A model generated the notes under the pieces. It was not told where the DNA came from and ran no database searches. It saw only the letters and a list, made by a program, of their open reading frames with translations. 64,000 nucleotides of DNA from an archaeon (GTDB lineage: Archaea > Nanobdellota > Nanobdellia > Pacearchaeales > GW2011-AR1): positions 386,278-450,277 of the forward strand of contig DAHWKL010000001.1 in NCBI GenBank assembly GCA_027343665.1, in the 5' to 3' direction. The position numbers were made by a program, and so were the translations under genes. This document shows positions 25,355 through 41,302 of this stretch, piece by piece. Every line of letters begins with the position of its first letter. Positions within the stretch are counted from its first letter, which is position 1.

Positions 25355-25367
25355 TATCTTCCAACAT

Positions 25368-29173: not shown

Positions 29174-29881
29174 ATGGAAAAAAATGCTGATATGAAAATA
29201 TCTTTCAAAATCAAAACAAATGAGAGCCTTGCAAATGCAATAAGAAGGGGTACAGGCCTTGTTCCAACTATGGCAATAGATGAAGTGGAAATTTCAAGAA
29301 ATGATTCAGCACTTTACGATGAAACTCTCGCCCACAGGATAGGGCTCATTCCAATAAAGATGGATAAATCCTGGAAAGAGGATACTGTCTTAAAATTTAA
29401 ACTTGATTCAAAAAAAGAGAATGTTTATTCAGGAGAGATTAAAGGAGATTTTGAACCCGTCTATGAAAAAATTCCCCTCACACTCCTTAGCCCAAACCAA
29501 GAACTTAAGATAAAAGGAAAGACAAAGATGGGAACGGGAAGAGAACATGCAAAATTTTCACCCGGAATAATTTTGTACCGAGACATCACCGAAATATCCC
29601 TTGACAAAGAGTTTGAAAAAGAGATAAAGAATATTTTTCCGGGAATAGAAATAAAAGATAAAGGAAATAAAATCATACTAAAAGATGACAATGAAAAAAC
29701 CGTCCTTGATTTCTGCGAGGGTCTTGCACAAAGGAAGAAAAAGAAAATAGAAGTGACAGAAACTGGAGAATTCCTTTTCACAGTTGAATCTTTTGGCCAA
29801 ATGAAAGCAGAAGAAATTTTCAAGAAATCCATCGAGATTCTTGAGAAAGAATTGAAAGGCATATCAAAAAAAATAAAATAA
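29174..29881 (+). CDS. rpoD: DNA-directed RNA polymerase subunit D (Rpo3)
   Basis: 235 aa with the SLANAIRR motif. It holds the conserved position after S11. Confidence 0.8.
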   Translation: MEKNADMKISFKIKTNESLANAIRRGTGLVPTMAIDEVEISRNDSALYDETLAHRIGLIPIKMDKSWKEDTVLKFKLDSKKENVYSGEIKGDFEPVYEKIPLTLLSPNQELKIKGKTKMGTGREHAKFSPGIILYRDITEISLDKEFEKEIKNIFPGIEIKDKGNKIILKDDNEKTVLDFCEGLAQRKKKKIEVTETGEFLFTVESFGQMKAEEIFKKSIEILEKELKGISKKIK

Positions 29882-30048
29882 TTTACAAGATTTACTTCAT
29901 GATTCAAGCGCCGTAGGCTCGGCGCGAAGCCAATAGTCCGTTTATAATAAGGATTTTTGCAAAAAAATAATTTTTATAAGGAAAAGTTAGTTTTTTAACA
30001 GGAAATTTTGCAAAAAAAATATGGTTTTTTATTGGAGAGTTGAAAAAT

Positions 30049-30093
30049 AGAAAAAGCCGCCCACAAAATGAGGAAGGAAAAAGGGCGGCTTTT
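30049..30093 (-). terminator. Hairpin + U-run intrinsic-type terminator after the 112 aa membrane-protein gene
   Basis: AAGCCGCCC (30054-30062) pairs with GGGCGGCTT (30083-30091). On the minus strand the stem is followed by TTTTT. Confidence 0.5.
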
Positions 30094-30106
30094 CCAAAGA
30101 ATATGA

Positions 30107-30445
30107 TTACAAGACTTGTTTGCTTCTCATAGAGAATGATAAATTTACACAAAGAAGAAAGATTGCAACTGACTCCAAAGCTGTGAAGACAAACACCAGC
30201 TCAAGAGCAGAGCTGAATGAGAGTTTTACAGAATACTCTGAAATCATGTAGGCAAGAATCCCTACGACTATGAGAATTAGCAAAGCTATTTTTTTATTTG
30301 CTCTTTTCCATTCCTTTCGGAAAATAAAAAGAACAAGAGCTGATGAATACATGTAGATTATCCACACGGACAACTGAGAATCATTCATAGTTATAAAGAA
30401 TATCCCTGCCACAGATAGGAAAATGAAAAAGAATTGCACCTTCAT
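30107..30445 (-). CDS. Small membrane protein (about 3-4 TM), unknown function
   Basis: 112 aa, hydrophobic. AGGAGGTGGAA Shine-Dalgarno upstream of the ATG; a terminator hairpin follows downstream. Confidence 0.5.
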   Translation of the reverse strand: MKVQFFFIFLSVAGIFFITMNDSQLSVWIIYMYSSALVLFIFRKEWKRANKKIALLILIVVGILAYMISEYSVKLSFSSALELVFVFTALESVAIFLLCVNLSFSMRSKQVL

Positions 30446-30464
30446 GATTCCACCTCCTCTTTAT

Positions 30465-30508
30465 TTTTTGAAAAAAAAGCCGCCTCGAAGAGATACAGAA
30501 GCGGCTTT
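30465..30508 (-). terminator. Hairpin + U-run intrinsic-type terminator after the 116 aa membrane-protein gene
   Basis: AAAGCCGC (30476-30483) pairs with GCGGCTTT (30501-30508). On the minus strand the stem is followed by a run of 8 T. Confidence 0.5.
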
Positions 30509-30516
30509 CTGAATAA

Positions 30517-30867
30517 TTATTCTTCCCTTGAAGAGAATCTTCCAAGGGATTTTTTCATATTCACCCACGCAAGAAAAACGCAAGATGAAATGAAATAAAG
30601 GAACGCAGGCCAGAAGTAACTCGAAGTGTTGCTTATTTCTGGCGAGATGAAGATGTTTACGATCCACAGAACAGCAAACATCATTGCCCCCCTCCTCAAG
30701 TTTATGCTGCTCCGGAAAAGAGATAGTATCACTGCAAAGGTCGCCAGGAAATACAACTGGGATCTTAAGAAGGGGGAACAACTCTTTCCGAAGTGAAGAT
30801 TGAGGATGACTAAAGAAGCTGCTGCAAAGACTAACAGGAGTGCTCTGAAACAAGTTGACTTTTTCAT
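30517..30867 (-). CDS. Small membrane protein (about 4 TM), unknown function
   Basis: 116 aa with an ATG start, hydrophobic. It was preferred over the overlapping 30461-30853 frame. Confidence 0.45.
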   Translation of the reverse strand: MKKSTCFRALLLVFAAASLVILNLHFGKSCSPFLRSQLYFLATFAVILSLFRSSINLRRGAMMFAVLWIVNIFISPEISNTSSYFWPAFLYFISSCVFLAWVNMKKSLGRFSSREE

Positions 30868-30878
30868 TGTTTTCTCCT

Positions 30879-31223
30879 TTATTTTAAGAATGATTTAGAT
30901 TCTTCCTGGTGAATTTTTTCTTTTTCTTCTTCAAGTGATTTGATGAACTCAAAAGAAAGATTAACCAGGTCCAGTCGATTGCTTTCCTCACAATCTGAGG
31001 GTATCCAAAGCACACCTTTAGAGATAAGAAACTCGAGACGCTCTTTCAGATCAGCGTGAGGAATTCCTGTCTCATCTTCAAGGGCTTTGAAACCTGAAGC
31101 ACGACTTTTATGCACAAGGCGTATGATCATAAGAGATTCATATTTAATCTTGTCGACCTGCTCGCATATGAATCCCTCCATCGCCCTGACAAAAGCCATT
31201 GTCGGAATTTCACTTATTCCCAT
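30879..31223 (-). CDS. Small helical protein, putative winged-helix DNA-binding
   Basis: About 114 aa from the ATG at 31223, which has a GGTGA SD. The track start at 31256 is TTG. FKALEDETGIPHADLKERLEFLISKGVL reads as a possible HTH pattern; there is no family-specific motif. Confidence 0.45.
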   Translation of the reverse strand: MGISEIPTMAFVRAMEGFICEQVDKIKYESLMIIRLVHKSRASGFKALEDETGIPHADLKERLEFLISKGVLWIPSDCEESNRLDLVNLSFEFIKSLEEEKEKIHQEESKSFLK

Positions 31224-31227
31224 ATTC

Positions 31228-31521
31228 TCACCTTCTTTCATCTTTGATGTTTGCAAAATATTTTCTTTTCCACTTCTCTTTCTTTTTTCCCCAGGTGGAA
31301 GAATTCCTGTGGATAAGACCTTCTTTCACCATTGATTTAAGGTGCTTACTGACAGTCCTGCTGCAAAGCTTTGTCGCTTTACAGATTTCTTTTGGAGATG
31401 CACCATTTCCTTTTCTTTTTATGAAGAGAAAAATATTCTCTTTGGATGTGCTATTCTTAACTTCATTCATTTCTTTCTCCTCTTTCTTTGATTTGAATGG
31501 TTTTGTGCAATTTACGCTCAT
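31228..31521 (-). CDS. Small putative winged-helix DNA-binding protein (MarR/ArsR-like)
   Basis: GASPKEICKATKLCSRTVSKHLKSMVKEGLI reads as a possible HTH pattern. An internal ATG at 31470 has a stronger GAGGAG SD and may be the true start. Confidence 0.5.
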   Translation of the reverse strand: MSVNCTKPFKSKKEEKEMNEVKNSTSKENIFLFIKRKGNGASPKEICKATKLCSRTVSKHLKSMVKEGLIHRNSSTWGKKKEKWKRKYFANIKDERR

Positions 31522-31560
31522 TACGGACTTCTTGATCTTGCTTCCATTCCATTTTCCTCC

Positions 31561-31851
31561 TTAAATTATCTCTCTTGGACAAACCAAAATGTAATGATTT
31601 CCTCCGCCATTTGAGGAACGGAGCTTAATCTGGTTATTCTGCTCGAGCGTGTGGCATATCCTTCTTGCTCTATCCTTGCATATACCCAGCTGAGACGCCA
31701 GGAAATTTAGGGTAAAAGTTTTGTGAACTTTTGCCACAGCCATTGTTCCACGAAGTTCATCAAGGGTAACATGACGACTTCTTTGGGCAATCTCTGCTAG
31801 TTCCTCCATCTTTTCGCTTCCCAGAATGTCCTGAACAAGTTGCGAGTACAT
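31561..31851 (-). CDS. Small putative winged-helix DNA-binding protein
   Basis: 96 aa with a GGAGG SD. FLASQLGICKDRARRICHTLEQNNQI reads as a possible HTH pattern. Confidence 0.5.
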   Translation of the reverse strand: MYSQLVQDILGSEKMEELAEIAQRSRHVTLDELRGTMAVAKVHKTFTLNFLASQLGICKDRARRICHTLEQNNQIKLRSSNGGGNHYILVCPREII

Positions 31852-31866
31852 TACTTTCCTCCTTTT

Positions 31867-32127
31867 TTATGCCAGTTCATTTTGAAGAAGAGGGTGATAA
31901 TACACCTCTCCCTGGAATTCGTCGCGCCAGATTTCATTCGGGCTGCAAAGAATGAACAGGATTTTTTCGACAATGATTTCGTCTATTCCAGTCTCTCCTG
32001 AAATTGATTTGGGAGTGCAGGAATGGCGCCTTTCCAAGCACAGATAAACCTTCTCAGAATGGACCGGGTCCAATTTTTCCTCTCTTGCAACCTTCTTAAG
32101 CTTTGCAAGATTTTCTTTGCTCAACAT
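31867..32127 (-). CDS. Small putative winged-helix DNA-binding protein
   Basis: 86 aa with an AAGGAG SD. TPKSISGETGIDEIIVEKILFIL reads as a possible HTH pattern. Confidence 0.45.
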   Translation of the reverse strand: MLSKENLAKLKKVAREEKLDPVHSEKVYLCLERRHSCTPKSISGETGIDEIIVEKILFILCSPNEIWRDEFQGEVYYHPLLQNELA

Positions 32128-32185
32128 GTCTTTCTCCTTTTTTAAGGTTCACGATGGAATTTTGTCTTTGAGGAACTTTTTGGGA

Positions 32186-32968
32186 TTAAAATCTTAATTT
32201 AACCCTTTTCCTCGTCCTGATTAATTCACTCGCGATTCTGTAAAGGTCAATCTCTCCGTCATAGAAAGATCCTCTTGGAATTTCTCTCCGTCTTGAGAAG
32301 AAAAACTTCAAAAAGTTCGAAGGAATGACTCTTAACTTAACCTCTTCAAGAGCTAGGGAAAGGTTATCGATGATCTCTCGAGATGAGGCTTCATCTTCGG
32401 GAAAATAATCGAAATTGTCTTCTGCTGCTTTAATGATTCCCCTTGCAGTATCCTCAAGAAGTGAAATGGAAATATGTGCTTCCCAATCGACAAGGTTAGA
32501 AAATTCCTTGAGTACTGCTACAAGAGCTTTCGCATCGGCATGGCCGATTTCTTCATTCATTCTGTTTGTGAGAGACTCAATCATCTGCATCTTCTGATTG
32601 AATTCCTCCTTTTCTGTCTTGATTCTTGAGAAAACCTCACTTTCCATATCTTCGATCTTGTCGAGATGCTCTTTTTTGAAAGACCGCACTTCCCTTCCGG
32701 ACAATGGAAGTCGATCAACTATCATTGAACTTTCCAGTTTTTTGTGAAATCCGAAAGATGAATCTTCATAGAGGGATACCCTCGGATTAAAGATGGGTTT
32801 CAGATGAAAAGCACTTCTTCTTTTCCACTCAGAAAATCCCTGGAAAGCTCCGGAGGAATATTCCTCATGAGCAGTTGTGTTCAAAGAGAGTATTACAAAT
32901 GAGGAGAAGATTGCCTCAAGCAGATTCTCAACTTGCTCTTGGGAAATGGAATTAAAATAGTAAGTCAT
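32186..32968 (-). CDS. Hypothetical protein (260 aa, helical/acidic), no recognisable domain
   Basis: Long ATG-initiated ORF, co-oriented with the island genes. Confidence 0.45.
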   Translation of the reverse strand: MTYYFNSISQEQVENLLEAIFSSFVILSLNTTAHEEYSSGAFQGFSEWKRRSAFHLKPIFNPRVSLYEDSSFGFHKKLESSMIVDRLPLSGREVRSFKKEHLDKIEDMESEVFSRIKTEKEEFNQKMQMIESLTNRMNEEIGHADAKALVAVLKEFSNLVDWEAHISISLLEDTARGIIKAAEDNFDYFPEDEASSREIIDNLSLALEEVKLRVIPSNFLKFFFSRRREIPRGSFYDGEIDLYRIASELIRTRKRVKLRF

Positions 32969-33024
32969 TTTAAATGTCCTTTTAGTTTAGAATTTAGGAT
33001 AATTTGACAAAAGTCAAACATTTT

Positions 33025-33048
33025 TCAGGGTGCTCTTATCATATCCAT
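33025..33048 (-). promoter_or_regulatory. 7-codon mini-ORF MDMIRAP* (candidate leader/arrest peptide)
   Basis: ATGGATATGATAAGAGCACCCTGA with an AAGGAG SD 7 nt upstream, in the intergenic region upstream of the 260 aa gene. It is followed by the TTTGAC-N4-GTCAAA hairpin (33003-33018). Confidence 0.35.
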
Positions 33049-33081
33049 GACTTTGCTCCTTTCTTTTGAACGTGTTTATGA

Positions 33082-33636
33082 TCAGTTTAACGAAAAGATA
33101 AAACCGATTTCTACTCCAGGACCTTCGAAATCAGAATCGAAAGTTATAGCGTTGTATTTCAGACTTATGTAAAGATAGCCCGAACTGGAAGTGTAACCCC
33201 CAAAACCTATTTTTGGAGCTACACCGAAACCATCTGTTGAAGACGAATAATGCTTGCCGTTATAGTCTTCGCTTGAAGAAATTGAAGCATAGAAAAATTC
33301 CCCACCAAAGAATACATTTCTTTCAGAGGAAAAGTAGTACAGATATTCTCCACCTATAGAGACCAAAGAATAATCGACTTTCTGCCCTGCAAATTCGCTT
33401 CCATTATCAAACGTTTGGGTCGCTATTTTCCATTCAGCGAAGACACCCCACGTCTGAGTCGTTGAAAGATTTTTCTCGTAAGCTCCTTTCAACCCATAAA
33501 AGTTACAGTTATCAACATTATGGGGCTTCATGAAAGTTCCAGAGAAATCTATCCCTGACTCAGGAATCAAAGAATTCTGAGCTTTCACAGGAGCGAATGA
33601 GAACAGAAATGCAATGATTAATGCTGCGGATTTCAT
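33082..33636 (-). CDS. Secreted beta-barrel (bacterial OMP_b-brl/porin-family-like) protein
   Basis: Signal peptide MKSAALIIAFLFSFAPVKAQ, then alternating aromatic/Gly-rich beta-strand pattern. The ATG at 33636 has a GAGGA SD; the track start at 33648 is GTG. Confidence 0.5.
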   Translation of the reverse strand: MKSAALIIAFLFSFAPVKAQNSLIPESGIDFSGTFMKPHNVDNCNFYGLKGAYEKNLSTTQTWGVFAEWKIATQTFDNGSEFAGQKVDYSLVSIGGEYLYYFSSERNVFFGGEFFYASISSSEDYNGKHYSSSTDGFGVAPKIGFGGYTSSSGYLYISLKYNAITFDSDFEGPGVEIGFIFSLN

Positions 33637-33688
33637 TTTCATCCTCACTTTTTTGAAGTTTAAAATTAGTTAATTACAAGATAATTTT

Positions 33689-33712
33689 TTAAGGCGCTCT
33701 TATTGTGTTCAT
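33689..33712 (-). promoter_or_regulatory. 7-codon mini-ORF MNTIRAP* (candidate leader/arrest peptide)
   Basis: ATGAACACAATAAGAGCGCCTTAA with a GGAAGGA SD 7 nt upstream, in the intergenic region upstream of the 33636 beta-barrel gene. Confidence 0.35.
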
Positions 33713-33734
33713 TATTTTTTCCTTCCATTATTTA

Positions 33735-35735
33735 TTATTGCTGGTAGATTATTACAAGCATCGGCCTCTTTGAGGTATCCGGGTTATTGCTGCTGCAAAA
33801 GTCCACCTCACAGGTGTTCTGAGAAGTGGATAAAGAGAATCCGTAATTCGGACTTCCGTTCACCCAATCCTGAACAGTTCCAGTTACATCCATTTCATAC
33901 CATGAAGAAGTCATTTTCTGAGTAACTTCCTCGGAGAGTACGACTGATGATGAAGGCCGGCTGAGCCATTCGACAGTCTGTGCATTCCATGAACTTCCCA
34001 CTTTTCCAAGGAAGAATGTCGGCACTTCATTAATGTAATTCACAGATCCGAGGCCATACATTTTAAGTGTGGCGGATAATATTTTTGCACCTGAAGGAAT
34101 TCCCGAAAGGTCGAATTTTATAAAAGATTCTGATTCTTCAAGCCAACTGGGATTATCAAAGAGTGCCTGGAGAGTATCACTGTCAGGATAATTATAGTAA
34201 GTATCAGGAGAACTTGGCCAAGTCAAATGCCTCACCCAAGTGTCCTGACCATCAGACGGACCTGGCTGCAAAGTGAGAGTTTTTTGTGCCCCGCTTGAAG
34301 AAGAAGTGGTGAACTGCCATGTCGGACCTGCGGCAGAATCTCCATGAGTATCAAATGCTACAACTTGCCATACCACAGAAGTTCCAGGGGGTAAGTCTCC
34401 AAGCCCCATGTACGGAGCGTATAAATCATGTGCCCATCCAGGGATATTGGAGCCTATCTGATAAGTGATTGAATAATAAACAGAGTCACCATCAGGATCA
34501 GAGTCATCCCAAGTGAGCATTACCGGATTCTGGACTTCTGAAGAGTAGTTTGCAGGACTCGGATTTGAAGGAACATTGGGAGGATGATTCTGCTGCGCTT
34601 GAGCTTGAGATATAATACTTTCAGTCTGAAAAACAGGAAAAGAATATTCTCCGAGGAAAGAAGCTATCCACCTGGAATTCACTCCGAGACTGCCCTCTGC
34701 CCCCGCTGAAAGTTTCCACCAAGGGGACTGAGAAGCATTCACATCAAGCCTGGCATAAGGACCAATTGTTATCTGAGGTCCGACGAGGTCATAAACATAA
34801 ACAGTAAAATTGAATAGGAGTTCACCTTTGAGTTCTCCGTTAAGATTCACTTCAACAGGCTTAGCAGTGAAAACATTGCTGAAAGTCTTACCGGCACTCC
34901 AACTTCCGCTGTAAGAAGCAGACAAACCAATATTCATGTCATCAGTTATCCCTGCTGCTGCTTTTCCTTGAAGAGAAATAGAAGGAATAAAAACAATAGA
35001 GACAGAAGGCGTGAAAGCAATCCCAGAAAGGATCACTGGATATCCATCTGCTGTGAACAGGGTCTTCTGCGTGGTGTAATCCAGTGAACCGGTCGCAATA
35101 AGATTCAAGTCAAGGCTACCATTCAGATTGAAAGATGCATTTGCAGAAATGGAAGGGGAAAGAATTACATTACCCGTTATTGAACCCCCGAGTGAGATTG
35201 ATCCTTCAATCTTCACCTGATCACCTGTCGTGTTTGGATTGCCGTCAGCATCATAGACAAGATAGTCCAGATCATAAGTCACTTCCGTCTTTGAAACTTT
35301 CTTGACTTTGACACCTTCCGTGCCACTCTGAACCTTCTGAAGAGAAGAAGCCAAAAGCGAAAAGCTAACATTCCCATCGCTGAAAGCATCCGTGAGAGAA
35401 GCATTAACAGTGGTTAGCACATTTCCGCTTATAGAAGTCACTTTTCTCAAAAACCCTCTTGGTGCCCCCGAGGACACGCCGTCAGAAAATACCACACTTC
35501 CGACTGAAATGTCCGATGGGACTGAAGAGAAAGTAATTGAATTCAAAGAAATGCTCTGAATATTACTCATCTGAGAAGAAGTAACCTGAACTGCACCTGG
35601 CTGGAGAGTCAACCCGTTTACAACTGTGGGGGGAGTCGGCGGGTTTGGCTCGGGTTCCTGATTTACCGGATTTGATTTTTTCGAACATGATGCAAAGAGC
35701 ACCACAAAGATCACAAAGATGATTAAGCGTTTCAT
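33735..35735 (-). CDS. Secreted lipoprotein with FN3-like and C-terminal DNRLRE-like domains
   Basis: MKRLIIFVIFVVLFASCSKK is a signal peptide plus lipobox Cys, followed by a Pro-rich linker. The C-terminal block QPGPSDGQDTWV...IKFDLSGIPSGAKILSATLKMYG...WNAQTVEWLSRP resembles the DNRLRE domain. AAGGAG SD 7 nt upstream of the ATG at 35735. Confidence 0.6.
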   Translation of the reverse strand: MKRLIIFVIFVVLFASCSKKSNPVNQEPEPNPPTPPTVVNGLTLQPGAVQVTSSQMSNIQSISLNSITFSSVPSDISVGSVVFSDGVSSGAPRGFLRKVTSISGNVLTTVNASLTDAFSDGNVSFSLLASSLQKVQSGTEGVKVKKVSKTEVTYDLDYLVYDADGNPNTTGDQVKIEGSISLGGSITGNVILSPSISANASFNLNGSLDLNLIATGSLDYTTQKTLFTADGYPVILSGIAFTPSVSIVFIPSISLQGKAAAGITDDMNIGLSASYSGSWSAGKTFSNVFTAKPVEVNLNGELKGELLFNFTVYVYDLVGPQITIGPYARLDVNASQSPWWKLSAGAEGSLGVNSRWIASFLGEYSFPVFQTESIISQAQAQQNHPPNVPSNPSPANYSSEVQNPVMLTWDDSDPDGDSVYYSITYQIGSNIPGWAHDLYAPYMGLGDLPPGTSVVWQVVAFDTHGDSAAGPTWQFTTSSSSGAQKTLTLQPGPSDGQDTWVRHLTWPSSPDTYYNYPDSDTLQALFDNPSWLEESESFIKFDLSGIPSGAKILSATLKMYGLGSVNYINEVPTFFLGKVGSSWNAQTVEWLSRPSSSVVLSEEVTQKMTSSWYEMDVTGTVQDWVNGSPNYGFSLSTSQNTCEVDFCSSNNPDTSKRPMLVIIYQQ

Positions 35736-35816
35736 TTTGATTCTCCTTTCACCCAAAATTTAATGAAAGGCTGCCTGTCCCGTAAACAGTCCCAAAAACA
35801 GACAGCCCAGATGAAA

Positions 35817-36407
35817 TTAGAAGTTGTATTTTATTCCTGAAGACCACAAGAACTCTTTTGCCTGCTTCATATATCCGACTCCACCATAAGCAGAGAGATG
35901 TCCTGTCAGTCTGAAAGATTTGTTCATACCAAAGATATTTTCAGGCAGGAACTTTTGGTAACCAAGCAATGCGTAATAGAATTCATAAGAATTCACAATT
36001 ATCGTTGCTTGCTCATAGTTGAAACAGAAACGGATTTTAGGAGAAGTATTTCCGAGTTCTGGGTCCCCAAAGCTCCATCCGACCCAAATGAGCAGGCTCA
36101 AGTGGCCACTGAATAAATTCGCTGAAGTGACAGGAGCTATCCAAGCAACATTTTTGAAAAAACCAACCGTGGGACCCAAAGAAATGTTTCCGGTTATAGG
36201 ATGAAAGAAGAGCATCTCTCCTTGGACAGGATTGAAATCGAGAAACATTGAATTTCCCGAGCTATCCGAAACGGTTGCTGAGATATCAATGCCGTCCGAA
36301 AGAGGAGTTTTTCCAGTCTGAGCAGAAATTGTGTTAAGCCTCCAGTTTTGTGCATTTGCCATGGAGGTAAGAAGAATTGTTAGGACAAAATAAATGAGCG
36401 TTTTCAT
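35817..36407 (-). CDS. Secreted beta-barrel (bacterial outer-membrane-protein-like) protein
   Basis: Signal peptide MKTLIYFVLTILLTSMANAQ, amphipathic beta-strand pattern, and a C-terminal ...SSGIKYNF ending in Phe (OMP beta-signal-like). AAGGAG SD upstream. Confidence 0.5.
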   Translation of the reverse strand: MKTLIYFVLTILLTSMANAQNWRLNTISAQTGKTPLSDGIDISATVSDSSGNSMFLDFNPVQGEMLFFHPITGNISLGPTVGFFKNVAWIAPVTSANLFSGHLSLLIWVGWSFGDPELGNTSPKIRFCFNYEQATIIVNSYEFYYALLGYQKFLPENIFGMNKSFRLTGHLSAYGGVGYMKQAKEFLWSSGIKYNF

Positions 36408-36454
36408 TTTGTTTCTCCTTTTGTTTAAGAGTTCTTTAGTTAAGGGGTTAAAAA

Positions 36455-36649
36455 GGGTTTTCCAGTTTCTCCTCCAAAGAATCTGGGTATTTCATCTGGT
36501 TTATTTTTGTCAAAGAATAATTTTTGGGTATTTCAAGGGTATTTCAGAGTGTGTTTTAGCAACGACTCAAGAAGTCTTTCTCCCGAAACGGCTGTTTCAG
36601 GGTTTTTCATTTGTCTTTCAAGCCTTTTTCGGCCCAAAAGGTTTTTTCA
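36455..36649. repeat. Iteron-like array: six same-orientation copies of GGGTWTTYCA
   Basis: Copies start at 36455 (GGGTTTTCCA), 36485, 36526 and 36537 (all three GGGTATTTCA; the last two are tandem with 11-bp spacing), 36600 (GGGTTTTTCA) and 36640 (GGTTTTTTCA). Confidence 0.55.
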
Positions 36650-36738
36650 GACAAGATAGAAAATCTTAAAATCAAAACTTTTTTAGAATTTTAATTTTTG
36701 TCAATTTTCTAGTTGCTTTGTTTTTTGTTTTTTTGGTG

Positions 36739-38703
36739 TTAAGGTTGTGAATATGAATCTGAAATTTTAAGGAGCTTTCTCCATCCTTTGCTGCTCCTCT
36801 CTTCTTTCTGGACAATTATACCTTTTTCTACAAGTTTGTCTTTTATAACATTTCCCTTTCTTGAAGATAAACCTACAGCTTTGTACAATTCAACTGTCGA
36901 TAAATTATGAGTGGGATTCTCCACGAGGAAATTTATGAGGGTGGTCTCTTCGGGAGAAAATGAACTGTTGGGAACGGATATTGTATCTATAGGAATGTCG
37001 GACTTATCTGATTTGAAACTCTTGATATCCATATTTTCAGCTAATATTTTATTCATGACTATAAGAACATCTTTTTTTGTATAATATCCTGAAGATACTC
37101 CTGAATCAAGAAGTTTTTCAACTTCCAAAAGGTTCAGTCTCTCTTTTGATTTTTTAGATGCAAAATCATAGAGAATCTTCTGAGTTTTTGAAAGCAAGCT
37201 TCCTATAACTACTTCTTCCTTCCTGGACTTTTCGGCTTTAATAATGGGTTTTCCAGGAGTTTCATTCTCAACTTCCCTGCCATTAAAAACTATTTTCTCT
37301 TTGAATTTTGGATCACTTTTTTCTGTTTCAGCAACTTCAGCCACAAATTCCATCTTGCTTTTTATTTTCTCTGAAGTAAGCGAGAGATTTCTCAGTTCGT
37401 CGAAAGGAACTTCGATCAGGAAAGGAGAGGTATATCTCTCTGAAAGTTTTACAATAGCAGATCCGACCTTTAACTCATTGAATATATCCATTTTATCCTT
37501 TAACCTCATCAGAGAGCTGACTTCTTCAACATCTGACGGAAGTTGCTGCTGGAAAGCGATATGACAAGCACTGTTTCCCACAACAGTATCTGAGAGTTTC
37601 GAGATATGTTGATCCAAACAGATTAAGCTTGTCCCGTATTCACGCATCTCTCTATAGACCATATCCGTAACAGACTCGGACATGAAATTTGTATCTTTTT
37701 TAAGAAAGATGTTATGAGCTTCGTCCACAAGGATCGCATTTTTGAATTCTCCGTTTGATTTAATCTCTCCTGCTTTCTTCAGCTTAAAGGTATAAGTCAG
37801 AAGATATTCACAGAAAAATTTCTTCTCAATATTTGAAAGGGAATTCAACTCAAAAATTACCTGTTTATTAAAAAGCTCTTCTATTGAGATGCTTTTTTTT
37901 CCGTCGTAGTTCACAACTTTTCCGAAATCGCCAAAGGTCAATACGGTCGCAATCCTAAGAGCACTCTCATACCAACCGGTCTCTCTTCCTTTTGAATCTC
38001 TTGCTTTGATTTCAAGCATTTTCTTCACATGCTCCCAATTAGGGTATAAATCTGAACCTTGGTAAACCCCCCACCCTTCAAAAGTTTCATCAAGTGTCTC
38101 AAGAAGAATTTTATGAACTCCAAAGGAAACATTAAAGGTTTCGGTGAGCAAGTCACAAAGAACATTTATCCATTCTTTAGGACTTACCCCATTCGGGGGC
38201 CGGTTTATATTAGTCTTAAAAAAGTTGCTTATCTGATTGTTTCCTACTGTGAAACACATGACTGACGGATTCACCTCAAGAAGTGGCCTGAAGCTTTTTT
38301 TCCAGTCAAAGACCATGAATGGCTTCTCTTTTCTCAGGAAATTTTTAAGAATATTCAAGGCAAGGGTCGTCTTCCCGCTCCCACTCATTCCCGTTATGCA
38401 AATATGCCTTGGCCAATCTTTCTCCCTTAAAGAAAAGTCAAATAATTTTTTTCCCGCATAACTAACTTTAGCTAAAGGGTATTCCCCGTCAAACGAGCCT
38501 TCTGAAGGCGGTTCTAAGGAAAAATCCTTATCAAGGAGTTTTGAAAGATGCCTCTGATAAAGAGAAGACAATATCTGAAAGATTTCATTTTTCTCTTCAT
38601 TATCTTCACTGTTCATGTACCTGAAATAAATTTCATCAATTTTGCTCCCAAGTATAGGCTTTAATTTTCTTGCCAGATCTTCGACGGAAATTCGTGTTTG
38701 CAT
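36739..38703 (-). CDS. FtsK/HerA-superfamily P-loop ATPase (DUF87/T4CP-like) with possible C-terminal winged-helix region
   Basis: 654 aa with Walker A ITGMSGSGKTT, FDWKKSF, and Walker B AILVDEAHNIF. The C-terminal LSTVELYKAVGLSSRKGNVIKDKLVEKGII reads as a possible HTH pattern. There is a 1-nt gap to the upstream gene. Confidence 0.65.
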   Translation of the reverse strand: MQTRISVEDLARKLKPILGSKIDEIYFRYMNSEDNEEKNEIFQILSSLYQRHLSKLLDKDFSLEPPSEGSFDGEYPLAKVSYAGKKLFDFSLREKDWPRHICITGMSGSGKTTLALNILKNFLRKEKPFMVFDWKKSFRPLLEVNPSVMCFTVGNNQISNFFKTNINRPPNGVSPKEWINVLCDLLTETFNVSFGVHKILLETLDETFEGWGVYQGSDLYPNWEHVKKMLEIKARDSKGRETGWYESALRIATVLTFGDFGKVVNYDGKKSISIEELFNKQVIFELNSLSNIEKKFFCEYLLTYTFKLKKAGEIKSNGEFKNAILVDEAHNIFLKKDTNFMSESVTDMVYREMREYGTSLICLDQHISKLSDTVVGNSACHIAFQQQLPSDVEEVSSLMRLKDKMDIFNELKVGSAIVKLSERYTSPFLIEVPFDELRNLSLTSEKIKSKMEFVAEVAETEKSDPKFKEKIVFNGREVENETPGKPIIKAEKSRKEEVVIGSLLSKTQKILYDFASKKSKERLNLLEVEKLLDSGVSSGYYTKKDVLIVMNKILAENMDIKSFKSDKSDIPIDTISVPNSSFSPEETTLINFLVENPTHNLSTVELYKAVGLSSRKGNVIKDKLVEKGIIVQKEERSSKGWRKLLKISDSYSQP

Positions 38704-38704
38704 T

Positions 38705-39202
38705 TTATGCTGTGACCTCCCTTAAAATTTTCTGAAGCTTAGAAGGGATATAAAATTTAACATTATAACTCCCAAGTCCATAACGCGCATTAACTTTCTT
38801 AAAAGACTGCCTGGGCTTGAATGATCCTCCATCACCATTCCTAGACGCGAGAAGCAACGGATTTTGCCTTACGACAACTGCAGCGTGATACACCTCCCCC
38901 AGGGTCTCCCATGCTACAAGATAACCCCGCCTTGGAGAATCTGCCTCAGGGAGATAATCAAAAAACCCATGCTTCGGACCATCATAAACAAAACCATCTT
39001 TATCTACTTCACCTACAAGATAAAGTGCAGTCCCTATGCAATTTCTCTTTCCTTTGGTCTTTACAGCTTTCTTCCTTCTCTGATCAAGTTCAGAATAAAA
39101 ATATTCTATATCCTCGTTTGTATGAATATAACCATTCCCTTCCCAAATTGATATTAAAGGAAAGCGATTTTTTATTTGACTGTAAATATCTCTTATTTTC
39201 AT
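38705..39202 (-). CDS. Hypothetical protein with Cys/His pair (possible papain-fold/NlpC-P60-like hydrolase)
   Basis: About 165 aa from the ATG at 39202 (the track start is TTG). It contains NCIGTALYLVG ... EVYHAAVVV. Assignment of the fold is speculative. Confidence 0.35.
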   Translation of the reverse strand: MKIRDIYSQIKNRFPLISIWEGNGYIHTNEDIEYFYSELDQRRKKAVKTKGKRNCIGTALYLVGEVDKDGFVYDGPKHGFFDYLPEADSPRRGYLVAWETLGEVYHAAVVVRQNPLLLASRNGDGGSFKPRQSFKKVNARYGLGSYNVKFYIPSKLQKILREVTA

Positions 39203-39203
39203 T

Positions 39204-39770
39204 TTATTCTTTATGCCCCCCAATTTTCACAAAATCATACATACTTTCTGGAAAAAGTGAAACATCAAAACCCTTACTTTCTAAATCTTTTCTCACGGAT
39301 TTATAAGAATCATTTGCCTTTTCAAGATCATTTATCTTCATAATCTTATTCATCGCTCTTGAATCAGATACATAATCTGGTTTAATATCACCCACAAACA
39401 TCCCTGAAAAATGGTTAGCGCTCTTTGCTAATTCTCCATTAGGAATGAGATTAACTTTTGCATTTGCGCATTCAAAAGAATCTGTCAAGTCAAAAGATAG
39501 CCTCTCCAGATCTGAAGGAAGAAGGGACAAACCAATAGGAAACCCATCAAATAACATCCCCCTATTCCTAAGGATCTCAAAAGTATTCCTATATTCTGAA
39601 AAAAAATTATTCTTAAACAACCTTAATTGATCCCCTCTTAATTCAGATTTACCAGAACAAGCTTCTGAGATCATTTTTGAAAAACTGATTAAACTGCCTT
39701 CAAGAAAATCCTGAGCAATTGCCCGCAACCTTTTAGAATTATAACCTAAATCAGACTGTTCAGACTCCAT
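39204..39770 (-). CDS. Hypothetical protein (188 aa), no recognisable domain
   Basis: The ATG at 39770 (MESEQSD...) overlaps the upstream gene by 11 nt and has a GGTGGTGA SD-like sequence. A longer alternative start lies at 39836. Confidence 0.4.
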   Translation of the reverse strand: MESEQSDLGYNSKRLRAIAQDFLEGSLISFSKMISEACSGKSELRGDQLRLFKNNFFSEYRNTFEILRNRGMLFDGFPIGLSLLPSDLERLSFDLTDSFECANAKVNLIPNGELAKSANHFSGMFVGDIKPDYVSDSRAMNKIMKINDLEKANDSYKSVRKDLESKGFDVSLFPESMYDFVKIGGHKE

Positions 39771-40224
39771 CTTCACCACCCAATATCCTTTCAAAAACTT
39801 TTGCCCTTTCTTCTTTCTCGTTGAGCTCTCTCTCATACTCCCTTAGTTCTTTCTTCAAAAGTGCGATATCTTTCCAGCAGCTTATCTTTTCATTCATCTG
39901 AAGTTCCGATATTTCTATCCTCTTATATCTCAGACTGTCTTTCTCTTTTACCACATCCTGAGAAGCTATCTGCATCCTTTCATTTTCGGCAAGATACACA
40001 TTTATTTCAGACTTAAGGGATTCTCCTTCTTCGTGAATCTTCCTACTTAATTTCTCTCTTCCTTTTATCATCTCATGAATTTCTTCAATTAGAGTTTTCA
40101 AAGCTTCGATCTTTGAGTTGCCTAATTCTCCAACAATTGCCTTCTCCGAAGGTATTTCATGGTTTTTCCAGTCTTGCAACTCTGAAAAATCCTGTTTTAG
40201 GGTGTTTTTCACATCAAATTCCAT
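39760..40224 (-). CDS. Coiled-coil protein (about 154 aa), first gene of the ATPase operon
   Basis: Heptad-rich sequence (EALKTLIEEIHEMIKGREKLSRKIHEEGESLKSEI...). ATG at 40224; the track start at 40236 is GTG. Confidence 0.45.
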   Translation of the reverse strand: MEFDVKNTLKQDFSELQDWKNHEIPSEKAIVGELGNSKIEALKTLIEEIHEMIKGREKLSRKIHEEGESLKSEINVYLAENERMQIASQDVVKEKDSLRYKRIEISELQMNEKISCWKDIALLKKELREYERELNEKEERAKVFERILGGEDGV

Positions 40225-40247
40225 AATCTTTACCACTTAGCAGTTAC

Positions 40248-40254
40248 TTATAAA
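40248..40254 (-). promoter_or_regulatory. Candidate archaeal TATA box for the 40224-36739 operon
   Basis: The minus strand reads TTTATAA 24-30 nt upstream of the ATG, consistent with a leaderless or short-leader archaeal promoter. Confidence 0.3.
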
Positions 40255-40309
40255 CTTTTCTACTTTGTTATAACTGACAAAAGGTGAAATTTCTGAAAAA
40301 GAAAACGAA

Positions 40310-40392
40310 TGTGGGTGCTAGGATTCGAACCTAGGTAAGGATGAACCAACAGATTTTGAGTCTGTCCCGTTTGACCACTCCGGCACACCCAC
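40310..40392 (-). tRNA. tRNA-Leu (anticodon CAA)
   Basis: The reverse complement reads GTGGGTGTGCCGGAGTGGTCAAACGGG-ACAGA-CTCAAAA-TCTGT-TGGTTCATCCTTACC-TAGGTTCGAATCCTAGCACCCACA. Outside the anticodon arm it is identical to the tRNA-Leu at 25272 except for 1 nt. Confidence 0.8.
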
Positions 40393-40549
40393 ATTATCTG
40401 TGTGACTGTGAGCTCATAACTCCTGAACTCCAGGCACACTTTATTACGGAATTTTTATAACACAAACATTTATAAAATAAACTAATTTTGGAATTTCACC
40501 TGCGAGTAAAAAGCGCATAGCGGGAAAAACTTTTTCTCGTTAAGCTACA

Positions 40550-40912
40550 ATGAAATCAAAGACTAAAATAGAAGTACAGTTAAGGAAAAAGACCAATCCA
40601 GAATTAGTCGAGACTATAATCCTTGCAAAAAAAAGGCCTGAATGGAAAGAAGTTGCCAGCATACTTGCAGGATCGCGTAAGAAAAGAAAAGATATGAATT
40701 TAGCTTCCATAAATGAACTGGGAGTAGACTCCGTCGTTATATGCGGAAAAGTGCTCGGGGATGGAGAGATTACAAAAAAAGTTAAAATTGCCGCACTTGG
40801 ATTTTCACAAAAAGCCAAAGAAAAGCTCAAAATAGCAGGCTGTGAAATGAAAACAATCCTTGAAGAGATTAATTCAAACAAAAATGCTAAGGGGGTCACA
40901 ATAATAAAATGA
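40550..40912 (+). CDS. rpl18e: 50S ribosomal protein L18e
   Basis: 120 aa. RKKTNPELVETIILAKK...KVLGDGEITKKVKIAALGFSQKAKEKL matches L18e. Confidence 0.8.
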   Translation: MKSKTKIEVQLRKKTNPELVETIILAKKRPEWKEVASILAGSRKKRKDMNLASINELGVDSVVICGKVLGDGEITKKVKIAALGFSQKAKEKLKIAGCEMKTILEEINSNKNAKGVTIIK

Positions 40913-41301: not shown

Positions 41302-41302
41302 A

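Follow-up and report, generated by a model that had tools for sequence, protein, structure and literature searches.

A probable lineage-wide module of a conserved ATPase, a repeat-bearing element and a variable surface-gene array at the RpoD-L18e junction of DPANN archaea

Genes and features between RpoD and L18e

Within the window (the whole 64,000-nucleotide stretch analyzed here), RpoD ends at 29881 and L18e starts at 40550, and the gap between them holds 14 minus-strand ORFs (30107-40236) together with tRNA-Leu(CAA) (Table 1). A first-pass annotation had described a ribosomal-operon junction split by about 15 non-translational minus-strand genes, and both points stood: in 12 DPANN genomes that are more distantly related, RpoD, tRNA-Leu and L18e lie side by side, so the split is a derived state, and profile searches of the 14 ORFs found no translational gene. 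A separately made assembly, annotated with a different gene caller, yielded the same genes. The conserved left flank, rpoD, is the final gene of an L21e-Rpb4-DUF655-S13-S4-S11-RpoD block (RpoD identity 59-83% in relatives), and the conserved right flank, L18e-L13-S9 (40550..41707), is transcribed divergently from i158 and the ATPase gene. The spacer past rpoD carries a GC-rich hairpin directly 3' of the gene, two copies of the palindrome TTTTGCAAAA and, at about 30050-30095, a hairpin and T-run terminator that closes the array. The rpoN gene is indeed displaced, as first annotated, but this arrangement is lineage-wide.

Table 1. Features of the RpoD-L18e gap and its surroundings (positions in the window).
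Feature	Position	Strand	Basis
rpoN	26018-26227	-	Pfam
rpoD (RNA polymerase subunit D)	29174..29881	+	Pfam RNA_pol_L and RNA_pol_A_bac
Convergent rpoD/array spacer	29882..30106	.	Direct sequence reading
i112, small 4-TM membrane protein, last array gene	30107..30445	-	Hydropathy
i116, small membrane protein, AGGAG upstream	30517..30867	-	ORF list, sequence
i125, small cytoplasmic protein	30879..31256	-	ORF
i97, small MarR-type winged-helix protein	31228..31521	-	Pfam MarR_2, 1.9e-6
i96, small protein with strong SD site	31561-31851	-	ORF; SD scan
i86, small protein with strong SD site	31867-32127	-	ORF; SD scan
i260	32186..32968	-	ORF; positional counterpart in nearest relative 37% identical
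i188, secreted beta-rich protein, N-terminal signal peptide	33082..33648	-	Sequence
i673, large secreted or lipoprotein-like surface protein	33735..35756	-	Pfam CBM96, 2e-21
i196, secreted beta-rich protein, first cassette position 3' of conserved element	35817..36407	-	Sequence
Conserved non-coding element between ATPase and array	36408..36738	-	Repeat counts; covarying hairpins
i654, FtsK-HerA superfamily (HerA/VirB4-like) P-loop ATPase	36739..38703	-	Pfam DUF87
i172, accessory gene between i158 and ATPase	38705-39223	-	ORF; family in 7 loci
i210, accessory gene between i158 and ATPase	39204-39836	-	ORF; weak match in L002/L067 only
i158, ~150-aa coiled-coil protein, invariant C-W-x-D motif	39760..40236	-	Family alignment
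tRNA-Leu(CAA), junction tRNA	40309..40393	-	Sequence; synteny in relatives
L18e	40550-40912	+	Pfam; synteny
L13	40909-41301	+	Pfam; synteny
S9	41303-41707	+	Pfam; synteny
XerA, housekeeping tyrosine recombinase	42519..43364	-	NCBIfam recomb_XerA_Arch, 229.6 bits (cut-off 220)

The ATPase i654 comprises a highly conserved N-terminal 440 aa, a variable linker, a C-terminal helical module and a MarR-like winged helix, the last of which is canonical in the structural model (pLDDT 80; MarR/PadR structural matches). Foldseek searches with the model returned the VirB4 C-terminal domain as the best structural match, along with HerA and DndH-C, and HerA-type folds predominate among the matches. The top NCBIfam match is CedD (3.3e-18), at 66 bits against a 600-bit cut-off, and the protein scores far under all curated Ced, VirB4 and HerA family cut-offs. 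Full-length homologues are numerous (n = 775, identity 52-77%), relatives occur in 215 species genomes, and the family alignment has many invariant columns; i654 is a DPANN core gene. The i158 gene, for which no Pfam or PDB match was found, directly precedes the ATPase gene in 72 of 78 loci (identity 38-72%) and is its obligate upstream partner, the two forming a DPANN-wide core gene pair that heads the block. By comparison across genomes, i172 and i210 occur in just a few relatives, and profile and structure database searches gave no family or PDB match for either.

The array genes proper occupy the left block (30.1-36.4 kb). Its GC and tetranucleotide peak is i673, whose C-terminal DNRLRE/CBM96 domain scores over the NCBIfam cut-off (DNRLRE_dom, 1.7e-28), which has array homologues in 18 loci, and whose nearest database relatives are clade members only (50, 48 and 43%). 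Counterparts of other array genes are scattered: a 28% identical homologue of i188 lies within the L003/L073 array and a 49% identical homologue of i97 in the same position in L002/L067, i116 is confined to the window's lineage in the comparison across species loci, and no homologue of i112 was found among 80 species loci. Profile searches gave no family match for i125. At i116, an automatic caller favored an overlapping frame (30461-30853, 130 aa).

Composition, synteny and history of the locus

Gene GC3 is 0.405 in the left block vs. 0.314 elsewhere in the window (Mann-Whitney p = 1.3e-5), with the block's top values in i96 (0.42) and i86 (0.48), and tetranucleotide distance is maximal at 33-36 kb (0.325; window mean 0.203, sd 0.041). 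The right block (36.7-40.3 kb) is host-like (GC3 0.343, p = 0.21; 1-kb GC 0.34-0.40). These profiles bear out the deviant left half of the composite composition first described, but the 25% GC 60-mer then quoted is unrepresentative of the right half. Likewise, Shine-Dalgarno (SD) motifs of the GGAG/GAGG type lie ahead of 6 of the 9 genes in the left block (1 of 4 in the right block, 11 of 53 other genes) and hairpin plus U-run terminators lie 3' of i196, i116 and i112, as the first-pass annotation held, but a generic scan found no terminator excess (10 found vs. 16 expected).

Left-half signal peptides, SD sites and intrinsic terminators look bacterial, which would suit a chimeric assembly of bacterial and archaeal DNA at 29.9, 36.7 or 40.3 kb. 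We set this explanation aside as vanishingly improbable, since the junctions are spanned in independent assemblies from two sequencing runs and homologous genes stand in the same order in relatives. The Logan assembly of SRR13221984 covers L21e to i210 with proteins 100% identical, and a second strain, from SRR22746138, is collinear with the window.

Broadly speaking, tRNA-targeting integrative elements and genomic islands adjoin the 3' end of a tRNA gene and are deviant in composition. The block resembles them in its contact with the tRNA 3' end in the window and in its partly deviant composition, and the first-pass annotation had suggested a decayed or novel element, or two successive acquisitions. 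An integrative element at the tRNA-Leu(CAA) 3' end, whether recent, decayed or novel (or a pair of such elements), would also agree with the SD-rich left half and with an ATPase whose superfamily is frequent in plasmids and viruses. The comparison with relatives, however, makes this very unlikely. The i158 and ATPase genes adjoin tRNA-Leu(CAA)/L18e in 40 species-level genomes, and in 18 of these 40 loci RpoD-S11-S4-S13 converges 4-12 kb downstream. At least 40 species thus share the architecture, and the ATPase co-diverges with housekeeping genes (identity to the window, ATPase vs. RpoD rho 0.84, XerA 0.60, S9 0.59). Of 38 relatives, 28 have the tRNA in the same orientation as L18e, with the block touching its 5' side, so that the 3'-end contact, though present in the window, stems from a later local inversion; it was in the window's subclade that tRNA-Leu(CAA) was turned around compared with most relatives.

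Searches of the block ORFs for integrase, capsid, phage and defense families gave only weak P-loop matches of the ATPase, in line with the first-pass annotation, and no relative of i654 was found in a viral contig scan. The sole integrase-family gene nearby, XerA, is outside the block and kept beside S9 in nearly all relatives. No att repeat was found either, as originally noted: the sequence of the tRNA 3' end recurs just once, in tRNA-Leu(AAG) (25329-25352). Together with the host-like right half and an absent relaxase, the clade-wide synteny, the co-divergence and the lack of integrase, att and viral genes led us to reject a recent or decayed element, and the shared architecture largely goes against reading the block as a mobile island.

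A second housekeeping context holds the ATPase pair and a variable array (L35Ae-L10e-methyltransferase-i158-ATPase...PPDK); the order ATPase, element, array is the same in both chromosomal contexts, with the array 3' of the ATPase. Overall, the block is a module of the chromosome that a large Pacearchaeota/Woesearchaeota/Nanoarchaeota clade has inherited vertically and not a recent insertion, and an ancient rearrangement in one large clade put it into the RpoD-tRNA-Leu-L18e junction. The block is composite, as first annotated, and its left half still turns over between strains; a more fitting description than two successive acquisitions is a core passed on vertically together with a continuously remodeled array.

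The variable array and the conserved element

Across species, 56 of 57 loci have a higher GC3 in the array than outside it (mean +0.093, p = 6e-11), a rise that persists for ORFs of at least 150 aa and leaves GC1 unchanged, and which could in part mirror low expression and not foreign origin. With ORFs called mechanically in relatives, 81% of array ORFs share the strand of the ATPase gene, a TM-like segment occurs in 69% (19% of other genes) and an SD-like motif lies upstream of 38% (vs. 21%), while 73% lack a homologue in other loci, the last figure being from the 25 loci whose array is bounded by a conserved gene. A Pfam census of the arrays found envelope-type domains only and no mobility genes (relaxase, Rep and integrase being absent). 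As a control, where RpoD-L18e gaps lack the ATPase, GC3 is host-like and TM proteins are few. Judged from these predictions, the array consists mostly of co-directional, lineage-specific genes, mostly for putative membrane or secreted proteins.

Strain L147, despite 95% identity, shows cassette-sized replacements. Three membrane-protein genes (228, 101 and 207 aa) take the place of i196, with leader, SD site and first codons retained while the first cassette differs, and the i112 site holds a 44%-identical allele and one additional gene. Such replacements between near-identical strains keep the array diverse. In our judgment it is about as likely as not that this diversity arises when the conserved flanks and leader recombine homologously, with hosts or viruses exerting the selection.

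The element between ATPase and array contains two units of GAAAWAYC plus hairpin (36605-36648 and 36565-36608) and, in the window, GAAATACC copies at 36538-36545 and 36527-36534 (11-bp spacing) and at 36486-36493, ~80 nt upstream of the i196 start. Within 0-500 bp past the ATPase stop, GAAATACC occurs 131 times forward and 20 times in reverse (77 loci), when most other 500-bp bins have 0-2. An element bearing it follows the ATPase in 60 of 75 species loci, with tandem copies at 11-bp spacing and inverted copies across loci; its distance to the first array gene is short and fairly constant, and that from the ATPase stop variable. No genome-wide or polar distribution of GAAATACC was found. The hairpins show compensatory changes in 11 of 16 pairs, every stem position has 3-6 different pair types, and the element has no Rfam match. 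The G-U pairs that these hairpins contain on the sense strand speak more for an RNA element (leader or 3' UTR) than for a site bound purely as DNA, and terminator-like hairpins between ATPase and array suggest that the two are probably not one operon.

Possible roles and known systems

We lean, with modest confidence, toward an ancient lineage-wide module of conserved ATPase, repeat-bearing element and fast-changing surface-gene array, with the role proposed below. More tentatively, the ATPase, putatively hexameric with i158, may bind the GAAATACC repeats and control or power a fast-evolving envelope apparatus of a TraB/Spd-, Ced- or T4SS-like kind. It is tempting to speculate that this ATPase would bind the repeats at the array head through its winged helix, and would then gate expression of the first cassette or power an envelope machine made of fast-evolving array proteins. 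The parts of this machine would be the adhesin-like DNRLRE protein, secreted beta-rich proteins and small multi-TM proteins, and it would serve host-cell contact or transfer in the manner of VirB4/Ced or TraB-Spd systems. Several observations go against this proposal. The ATPase is as conserved as ribosomal proteins, so that a housekeeping DNA-repair or segregation role would fit too; it has no TM segment and no VirB4 N-terminal domain; and the window's array has no channel candidate with at least 5 TM segments, one being present in a sister strain.

The components could also be coincidental neighbors, with ATPase and i158 serving some housekeeping process on DNA, such as repair or segregation, the element a 3' UTR/terminator of the ATPase genes or a separate small RNA, and the array an ordinary replacement-type flexible envelope-gene island at a permissive downstream spot. 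This conservation of the ATPase amid housekeeping genes in both contexts, its mostly HerA-type structural matches and the hairpins past its stop agree with this, as does the fact that flexible envelope-gene islands at fixed positions are well known, e.g., the Haloquadratum cell-wall island (PMC4535781). We nonetheless regard it as rather unlikely, given that the array kept its place 3' of the ATPase when the module moved to another chromosomal context, that gaps without the ATPase show no array properties, that the element keeps its distance to the array and not to the ATPase stop, and that leader, SD site and first codons survived the swap of the first cassette.

A domesticated conjugation-like module, in which a TraB/FtsK- or Ced/VirB4-like DNA pump is loaded at clt-like GAAATACC repeats with the small membrane proteins as Spd- or VirB-like partners, seems improbable. 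DNA beside the loading site would be exchanged most often, which would make the array hypervariable and foreign-looking in composition; the layout here, with a VirB4/HerA-like fold, winged helix, 8-mer repeats and variable membrane-protein array, matches that of Streptomyces TraB (PMC4447253), and the Ced and Ted systems offer an archaeal precedent for chromosomal domestication (PMC9905601). Set against this are the unanchored ATPase and its scores far below the curated families, the local distribution of the repeats, the missing relaxase, Rep and integrase, hairpin covariation that indicates RNA, and the lack of a polytopic channel candidate in the window's strain.

For the module that we favor, with ATPase, element and array linked, we found no prior description in the literature, and known systems share parts of it. 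The cell-wall island of Haloquadratum walsbyi (PMC4535781) likewise has a fixed position between conserved core genes, strain-level content variation, secreted or membrane-protein cargo, composition unlike the host's and no mobility genes. Here, in contrast, the array is tied to one conserved ATPase gene and a conserved repeat-bearing leader over ~75 species and two chromosomal contexts, and its genes are mostly co-directional. In the VARTIG modules of Thermococcales (PMC8416519), a conserved lead gene precedes unique sets of small, mostly transmembrane-protein genes, recombination-driven variability is inferred and a self/non-self or cell-surface role presumed; the lead gene there is a secreted Ig-domain protein and here a cytoplasmic ATPase, the text of that paper mentions no ATPase, the passages drawn on here describe no repeat element, and the lineages differ, with no sequence similarity.

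Streptomyces TraB-clt-Spd (PMC4447253) is built along similar lines: an FtsK-HerA superfamily ATPase recognizes DNA through its C-terminal domain, direct 8-bp repeats adjoin its gene, and 3-7 accompanying genes encode small membrane proteins so diverse that they cannot be matched from one plasmid to another. TraB, however, is FtsK-like, membrane-anchored and found on plasmids or AICEs with Rep or Int functions, whereas the DPANN ATPase is HerA/VirB4-like, soluble, chromosomal and vertically inherited, and the repeats here lie within a structured, probably RNA, element. Ced/Ted DNA import (PMC9905601, PMC11868833), like VirB4 T4SS, offers a chromosomal "domesticated" VirB4/HerA-like ATPase, with small membrane-bound partner proteins, but no CedA/VirB6-like channel or VirB2-like pilin was found in the window, and the Ced ATPases, in the portions of those published descriptions that we draw on, have no C-terminal winged helix, which i654 has. 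A further parallel is found in the SPEARE proteins of Nanohaloarchaeota (PMC10266531), where DPANN symbionts also couple a VirB4-like ATPase genomically to surface/adhesion proteins and a host-interaction role is proposed; there, the VirB4/TraG-like ATPase is fused or adjacent to one giant Ig-repeat protein, whereas in the present module the ATPase with its winged helix is a free-standing protein, and numerous small variable genes come after it.

Content and composition of the block

Between RpoD and tRNA-Leu(CAA), re-annotation recovered 14 ORFs, all on the minus strand, and the positions that the first-pass annotation had assigned to RpoD, L18e, tRNA-Leu(CAA) and rpoN all held (see the table; block ORFs are named by their length in amino acids). 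The host is a low-GC DPANN archaeon, whose best RpoD match (83% identical) is from Nanoarchaeota MAG FK5.bin88, other relatives carrying Pacearchaeota or Woesearchaeota labels. An independent gene caller applied to an independent Logan assembly recovered the same genes (100% identical, L21e to i210), which makes a chimeric assembly a very unlikely origin of the block.

Coordinates of features in and around the block (positions of the whole stretch)
Feature	Position	Strand
5S rRNA	25025-25139	-
5S rRNA and tRNA cluster	25025-25753	
tRNA-Leu(AAG), 24-nt 3' segment	25329-25352	
rpoN	26018-26227	-
RpoD	29174-29881	+
Palindrome TTTTGCAAAA, two copies	29953-30026	
i112 region	30096-30419	
35-nt repeat, two copies	33020-33054 and 33684-33718	
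i196	35808-36392 (segment replaced in the second strain)	-
Repeat-bearing element	36408-36738	
8-mers of the element	36538-36545, 36527-36534, 36486-36493	
Hairpin units of the element	36605-36648 and 36565-36608	
i654 (ATPase)	36739-38703	-
8-mer within i158	40151-40158	
tRNA-Leu(CAA)	40309-40393	-
tRNA-Leu(CAA), 24-nt 3' segment	40312-40335	
L18e, L13, S9	40550-41707	+
140-aa ORF	42110-42532	
XerA	42519-43364	
UvrB, UvrC, UvrA	45155-51627	-
AT-rich stretch	51600-57060 (to the end of Orc1/Cdc6)	
Orc1/Cdc6	55843-57060	+
PolD small subunit	57077-58696	+

Only four of the 14 ORFs gave any match in family searches: i654 (hereafter the ATPase), i97 (a MarR-type winged-helix protein), i673 (a DNRLRE/CBM96 domain at the C-terminus and a signal or lipoprotein-like N-terminus) and i112, for which the match was sub-threshold. 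Family and PDB searches gave no informative match for i158, i172, i210, i260, i86, i96 or i125.

The ATPase is a DUF87/HerA-type P-loop protein (Pfam DUF87, 31.7 bits vs. a cut-off of 23.2), with 775 homologues in the database, the best 120 of which are all full-length and 52-77% identical, and relatives in 215 species genomes. Residues 1-440 are extremely conserved and are followed by a variable linker and a conserved C-terminal domain, and the Walker motifs GMSGSGKT and VDEAHN are invariant in our alignment. The AlphaFold model (pLDDT 68.8) matched the VirB4 C-terminal domain (4ag5, TM 0.68-0.73 when normalised by target length) and HerA (4d2i, E ~4e-10) in Foldseek, with further structural matches to DndH-C, TdpA, defence-type HerA and TrwB. 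Walker A and B motifs combined with a predicted RecA-like fold place the protein in the HerA/VirB4 clade of the FtsK-HerA superfamily. Among curated NCBIfam families, CedD scored best (65.6 bits vs. a cut-off of 600), VirB4_CagE reaching 20.4 vs. 643 and HerA_Thermprot 22 vs. 800 bits. Modelled separately (pLDDT 80), the last 155 residues form a helical module and then a canonical MarR/PadR-like winged helix. Four relatives (L104, L112, L117 and L119) give a broken tblastn match to the ATPase, in two or three pieces with additional sequence within the C-terminal portion; an insertion, an intein or a frameshift could explain this.

Directly upstream of the ATPase in 72 of 78 loci lies i158, a coiled-coil protein of ~150 residues with an invariant C-W-x-D motif, for which family and PDB searches detected no relatives of known function; between these two genes, i172 and i210 occur as sporadic insertions. 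This isolates a near-universal, very conserved DPANN gene pair, a winged-helix HerA/VirB4-like ATPase with a coiled-coil partner.

Two compositional halves do exist, although not in the form originally described: the left (30.1-36.4 kb) is deviant, and the right (36.7-40.3 kb) is indistinguishable from the host (GC3 0.343, p = 0.21). GC3 of the genes at 30.1-36.4 kb is 0.405 vs. 0.314 in the 53 genes outside the block (p = 1.3e-5), the strongest tetranucleotide deviation of the window falls there, GGAG/GAGG Shine-Dalgarno motifs precede six of nine genes vs. 11 of 53 outside the block, and hairpin and U-run terminators follow three genes. The flexible, compositionally distinct region is the distal two-thirds of the block only. 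This part also holds a 35-nt repeat (74% identical) in two consecutive spacers, and two copies of the palindrome TTTTGCAAAA, 51 bp apart, lie in the spacer between RpoD and the array.

Gene order, age of the module and the mobile-element reading

Synteny was assessed by tblastn of the window proteins against loci anchored on RpoD, S9 and the ATPase. In 40 species-level genomes i158 and the ATPase are divergent from the adjoining L18e-L13-S9-(m140)-XerA, and RpoD-S11-S4-S13 converges 4-12 kb past the ATPase in all 18 contigs that are long enough. Identity of the ATPase to that of the window (mean 61%) is comparable to that of L13, L18e, RpoD and XerA, and correlates with RpoD (rho 0.84), XerA (0.60) and S9 (0.59). 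A second context, also of housekeeping genes, was found in ~35 genomes (ATPase 49-55% identical), with the order L35Ae-L10e-methyltransferase-i158-ATPase...PPDK. RpoD, tRNA-Leu and L18e are contiguous in 12 more distant DPANN genomes, so that the split between RpoD and L18e is derived, but it goes back to the ancestor shared by a large clade. The block is an old, vertically inherited module, which a rearrangement placed inside the RpoD-tRNA-Leu-L18e junction.

The first-pass annotation had taken the block, which ends at the 3' end of tRNA-Leu(CAA), for a decayed or novel element or for two successive acquisitions, and had called rpoN displaced. Its failure to see an integrase, capsid gene or att repeat by eye was borne out: family searches of the 14 block ORFs found no integrase, capsid, terminase, relaxase or defence family, no integrase family occurred among 148 array proteins of relatives, and a repeat search of 29.5-40.7 kb found no direct repeat of the tRNA 3' end on the opposite side of the block. 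With three mismatches allowed, the only other match to the 24-nt pattern of the tRNA 3' end was in tRNA-Leu(AAG). A viral or defence origin was rejected, since PHROGs and PADLOC searches returned nothing beyond weak P-loop matches of the ATPase, and a scan of viral contigs with the ATPase, which needs exact 8-residue words, found no relative. XerA (229.6 bits vs. an NCBIfam cut-off of 220) lies outside the block and beside S9 almost everywhere among relatives; it is a housekeeping gene and no island integrase. Overlapping the end of the XerA gene is a 140-aa ORF that most relatives keep next to S9 and XerA and that weakly resembles the central part of serine recombinases (XisF/CcrA, E ~7e-6).

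The tRNA argument fared no better. Of the 39 loci scanned for tRNAs, 38 have tRNA-Leu(CAA) between i158 and L18e. The tRNA shares the strand of L18e in 28 of 38 relatives, and that of the ATPase in the window and nine relatives, all from the window's subclade apart from two other genomes; the contact with the tRNA 3' end in the window therefore reflects a later local inversion. Nor is presence patchy: i158 and the ATPase occupy the site in all 40 clade loci that reach both sides, and an empty RpoD-tRNA-Leu-L18e junction is confined to distant lineages with the ATPase module elsewhere, as in one MAG that carries the second context on one contig (L138) and the contiguous junction on another (L024). 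Finally, rpoN keeps the same upstream, opposite-strand position across the clade. By the contrary case that the first-pass annotation had itself named, relatives with the same genes at the same place and no compositional deviation, the mobile-element interpretation is largely refuted. Even a gene block that interrupts a textbook ribosomal operon junction beside a tRNA can be old and inherited vertically, and calling such a block an island first requires a look at synteny among relatives.

Several features of the surroundings were recorded alongside. The 5S rRNA adjoins a cluster of tRNA-Leu(AAG), tRNA-Arg(CCT) and tRNA-Gly(TCC), which is kept in relatives together with the neighbouring opposite-strand rpoN, sometimes in inverted orientation. 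Both tRNA-Leu genes carry the same 24-nt 3' segment, the two copies being inverted relative to each other; this repeat flanks the whole S13-RpoD block and the module and could serve as a substrate for inversions in other lineages, where the S13-RpoD block is inverted relative to L18e in seven loci (L026, L029, L034, L041, L044, L051 and L055). In two more distant relatives a LAGLIDADG homing-endonuclease-like ORF abuts tRNA-Leu(CAA), between L18e and i158 (L063, 6137-6892; L064, 6075-6836).

The repeat-bearing element and the variable array

The 331-bp spacer that follows the ATPase is unusually long for a compact genome. Within 500 bp 3' of the ATPase stop, the 8-mer GAAATACC occurs 131 times forward and 20 times reverse across 77 loci, other 500-bp bins mostly holding 0-2 copies, with the sole other peaks inside the i158 and ATPase genes or immediately before them; at least one copy is present in 60 of 75 loci. 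Typically, the element starts with a AAGATTTT(T)A box (a putative promoter), followed by one to three units that each combine GAAAWAYC with a 7-10-bp hairpin, and then by a tandem GAAATACC pair with 11-bp spacing, often with an inverted copy 8-10 bp further, the first array gene beginning 30-100 nt beyond. Among 11 close relatives, compensatory changes affect 11 of 16 predicted hairpin pairs, and 38 hairpins show three to six pair types at each stem position, with G-U making up 12% of pairs on the sense strand. These pair types come from per-sequence folding, which replaced RNAalifold on motif-anchored single units, where no consensus emerged because MAFFT left the stems out of register. Covariation and sense-strand G-U pairs favour a structured RNA (leader or 3' UTR), even though the 8-mers, in their tandem and inverted arrangement, resemble DNA sites bound by proteins. 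The ATPase winged helix, as the sole conserved nucleic-acid-binding domain of the neighbourhood, is the predicted partner of the GAAATACC repeats. Rfam 15 gave no match at E <= 0.1 across 24-44 kb except tRNAs and 5S rRNA, so that a conserved structured repeat element without an Rfam family is now isolated.

A further copy of the 8-mer has a fixed position within the 5' portion of i158, where the window reads codons H-E-I-P, and 16 loci carry one in the 3' third of their ATPase gene; in these places the conserved feature could be a peptide or a DNA motif. Counted over the whole window, there are 13 copies vs. 2.2 expected, and their strand appears to switch close to the probable origin. A KOPS-like, chromosome-wide polar motif read by the ATPase was nonetheless rejected, since GAAATACC counts in 0.9 Mb of relatives' flanks match expectation and show no skew (upstream, 11 forward and 15 reverse; downstream, 4 and 2). 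The origin is probably the AT-rich stretch (GC 0.26-0.30) ~12-15 kb from the block, which has a deviant tetranucleotide content, contains the cumulative GC-skew minimum at ~51-52 kb, and lies directly upstream of Orc1/Cdc6 and the PolD small subunit. Elsewhere in the window, consecutive minus-strand genes encode the bacterial-type nucleotide excision repair proteins UvrB, UvrC and UvrA.

In both chromosomal contexts, an array of variable genes extends for 0.4 to >10 kb 3' of the ATPase and element, with 81% of genes on the ATPase strand. In the 25 loci where a conserved gene bounds the array, 73% of array genes have no homologue in other loci. Iterative profile searches extended no families but those of i673 (18 loci) and i196 (11 loci). 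In 56 of 57 loci the array has a higher GC3 than the remainder of the locus (mean +0.093, p = 6e-11); for array ORFs of at least 150 aa the difference is +0.089 at GC3, +0.039 at GC2 and 0 at GC1, which excludes an artefact of mis-called frames. SD-like motifs are about twice as frequent before array genes. A TM-like segment was predicted in 69% of 636 array proteins vs. 19% of 1082 others, and an N-terminal one in 60 vs. 15%. Pfam matches among the 148 array proteins of at least 150 aa were few and mostly envelope-type (including Band 7, CBM96, PKD, OMP beta-barrel, OmpA, LysM, VWA, RHS, LemA and TPM), with a few single enzyme matches and no mobility function. The OMP beta-barrel, OmpA and LysM domains of relatives' array proteins are bacterial-type envelope domains; as small secreted beta-rich proteins, i188 and i196 seem to belong with them, i196 being a suspected OMP-like beta-barrel. 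Neither an outer membrane nor murein is known from these archaea.

Turnover of the array continues at strain level. A second strain, from a different sequencing run, aligns collinearly with the window at nucleotide identities of ~95-97% (ATPase 99%, i673 98%) and departs from it in two places. In the first, i196 is replaced by three membrane-protein genes (1.73 kb), with the left breakpoint a few codons into the first ORF, so that leader, SD site and start are retained; in the second, the i112 region is replaced by a 44%-identical allele and one extra gene. The 207-aa polytopic (multi-TM) protein of this strain is found again in six other species, where its gene holds first or second place in the array. 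In the nearest species, array positional homologues are 27-80% identical vs. 77-96% for housekeeping genes. A recent bacterial donor for the GC-rich genes was rejected: the closest database relatives of i673 and i196 all fall within the clade, with no sign of such a donor among them.

As a control, gaps between RpoD and L18e without the ATPase have host-like GC3 and few TM proteins, so that the array properties travel with the ATPase, not with the ribosomal junction. The junction was likewise dismissed as a generic insertion hot spot, as these gaps hold ordinary host-like genes. The main rival in our ranking grants this adjacency no functional meaning: a housekeeping ATPase would sit beside an ordinary envelope island, and the element would be the 3' UTR of the ATPase. 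Set against an array that follows the ATPase into both contexts, this reading is possible but less likely than not. In dozens of species, the ATPase pair and the element head the most variable, envelope-directed part of the locus.

Possible functions and comparison with known systems

We tentatively infer that the ATPase and i158 are functionally coupled to the element and array. The ATPase might be a winged-helix-targeted regulator, the locus acting as an expression site for variable envelope proteins, or it might be the motor of an envelope apparatus assembled from array proteins. It is tempting to speculate further, with odds that we consider long, that i158, the winged-helix ATPase, the GAAATACC element and the array form one near-universal envelope translocation apparatus, a domesticated conjugation relative of TraB-clt-Spd or Ced type moving DNA or proteins to and from hosts, with the element as loading or control site and its activity generating the adjacent hypervariable DNA. 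If so, an undescribed translocation apparatus would be common to Pacearchaeota, Woesearchaeota and Nanoarchaeota, and genome-reduced symbionts would exchange DNA or proteins with host cells through it. DPANN symbionts are host-attached and have few recognisable contact, uptake or exchange systems, so that a conserved motor with diversifying surface proteins is a testable candidate for a host interface. Our incomplete coverage of the literature yielded no description of an ATPase-element-array module in DPANN, and the arrangement is clade-wide, undescribed and directly testable.

In the Streptomyces TraB-clt-Spd system, a translocase with a C-terminal DNA-recognition domain is accompanied by adjacent 8-bp repeats and diverse small membrane proteins (PMC4447253), much as the winged-helix model, the adjacent GAAATACC 8-bp repeats and the variable TM-rich array are combined here. 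However, TraB has an FtsK-type motor and an N-terminal membrane anchor, whereas the DPANN ATPase has no TM segment and folds closest to HerA/VirB4, and the TraB module resides on plasmids or AICEs with Rep/Int, whereas the DPANN module is chromosomal, vertically inherited and without Rep/Int. Archaeal Ced and Ted are domesticated conjugation machinery (PMC9905601, PMC11868833). A Ced, Ted or type IV secretion-like system would encode a VirB6/CedA-like polytopic channel and a VirB2/CedA1-like pilin with its ATPase. The window array holds 3-4-TM small proteins only; a recurrent ~200-aa polytopic protein occupies the first or second array position in the sister strain and six species, and no sequence similarity of array proteins to known components was detected. 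Another near mechanistic analogy comes from Nanohaloarchaeota, where giant surface proteins have VirB4-like ATPases coupled to them (PMC10266531). On the features compared, membership in any ATPase-based system appears to fail, because scores are below the cut-offs, the ATPase has no membrane anchor or VirB4 N-terminal domain, and the window has no identified channel or pilin and no Rep, Int or relaxase.

For the variable part, an integron-like platform was rejected: no recombinase lies beside the element in either context and the window spacers, with their terminator hairpins and SD sites, share no attC-like repeat, the co-oriented, cassette-like array being the only common trait. Resemblance is found in VARTIG modules (PMC8416519) and in the envelope flexible island of Haloquadratum (PMC4535781). 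With replacement flexible genomic islands of the envelope type, the locus shares a fixed position among core genes, strain-level replacement, envelope cargo and deviant composition.
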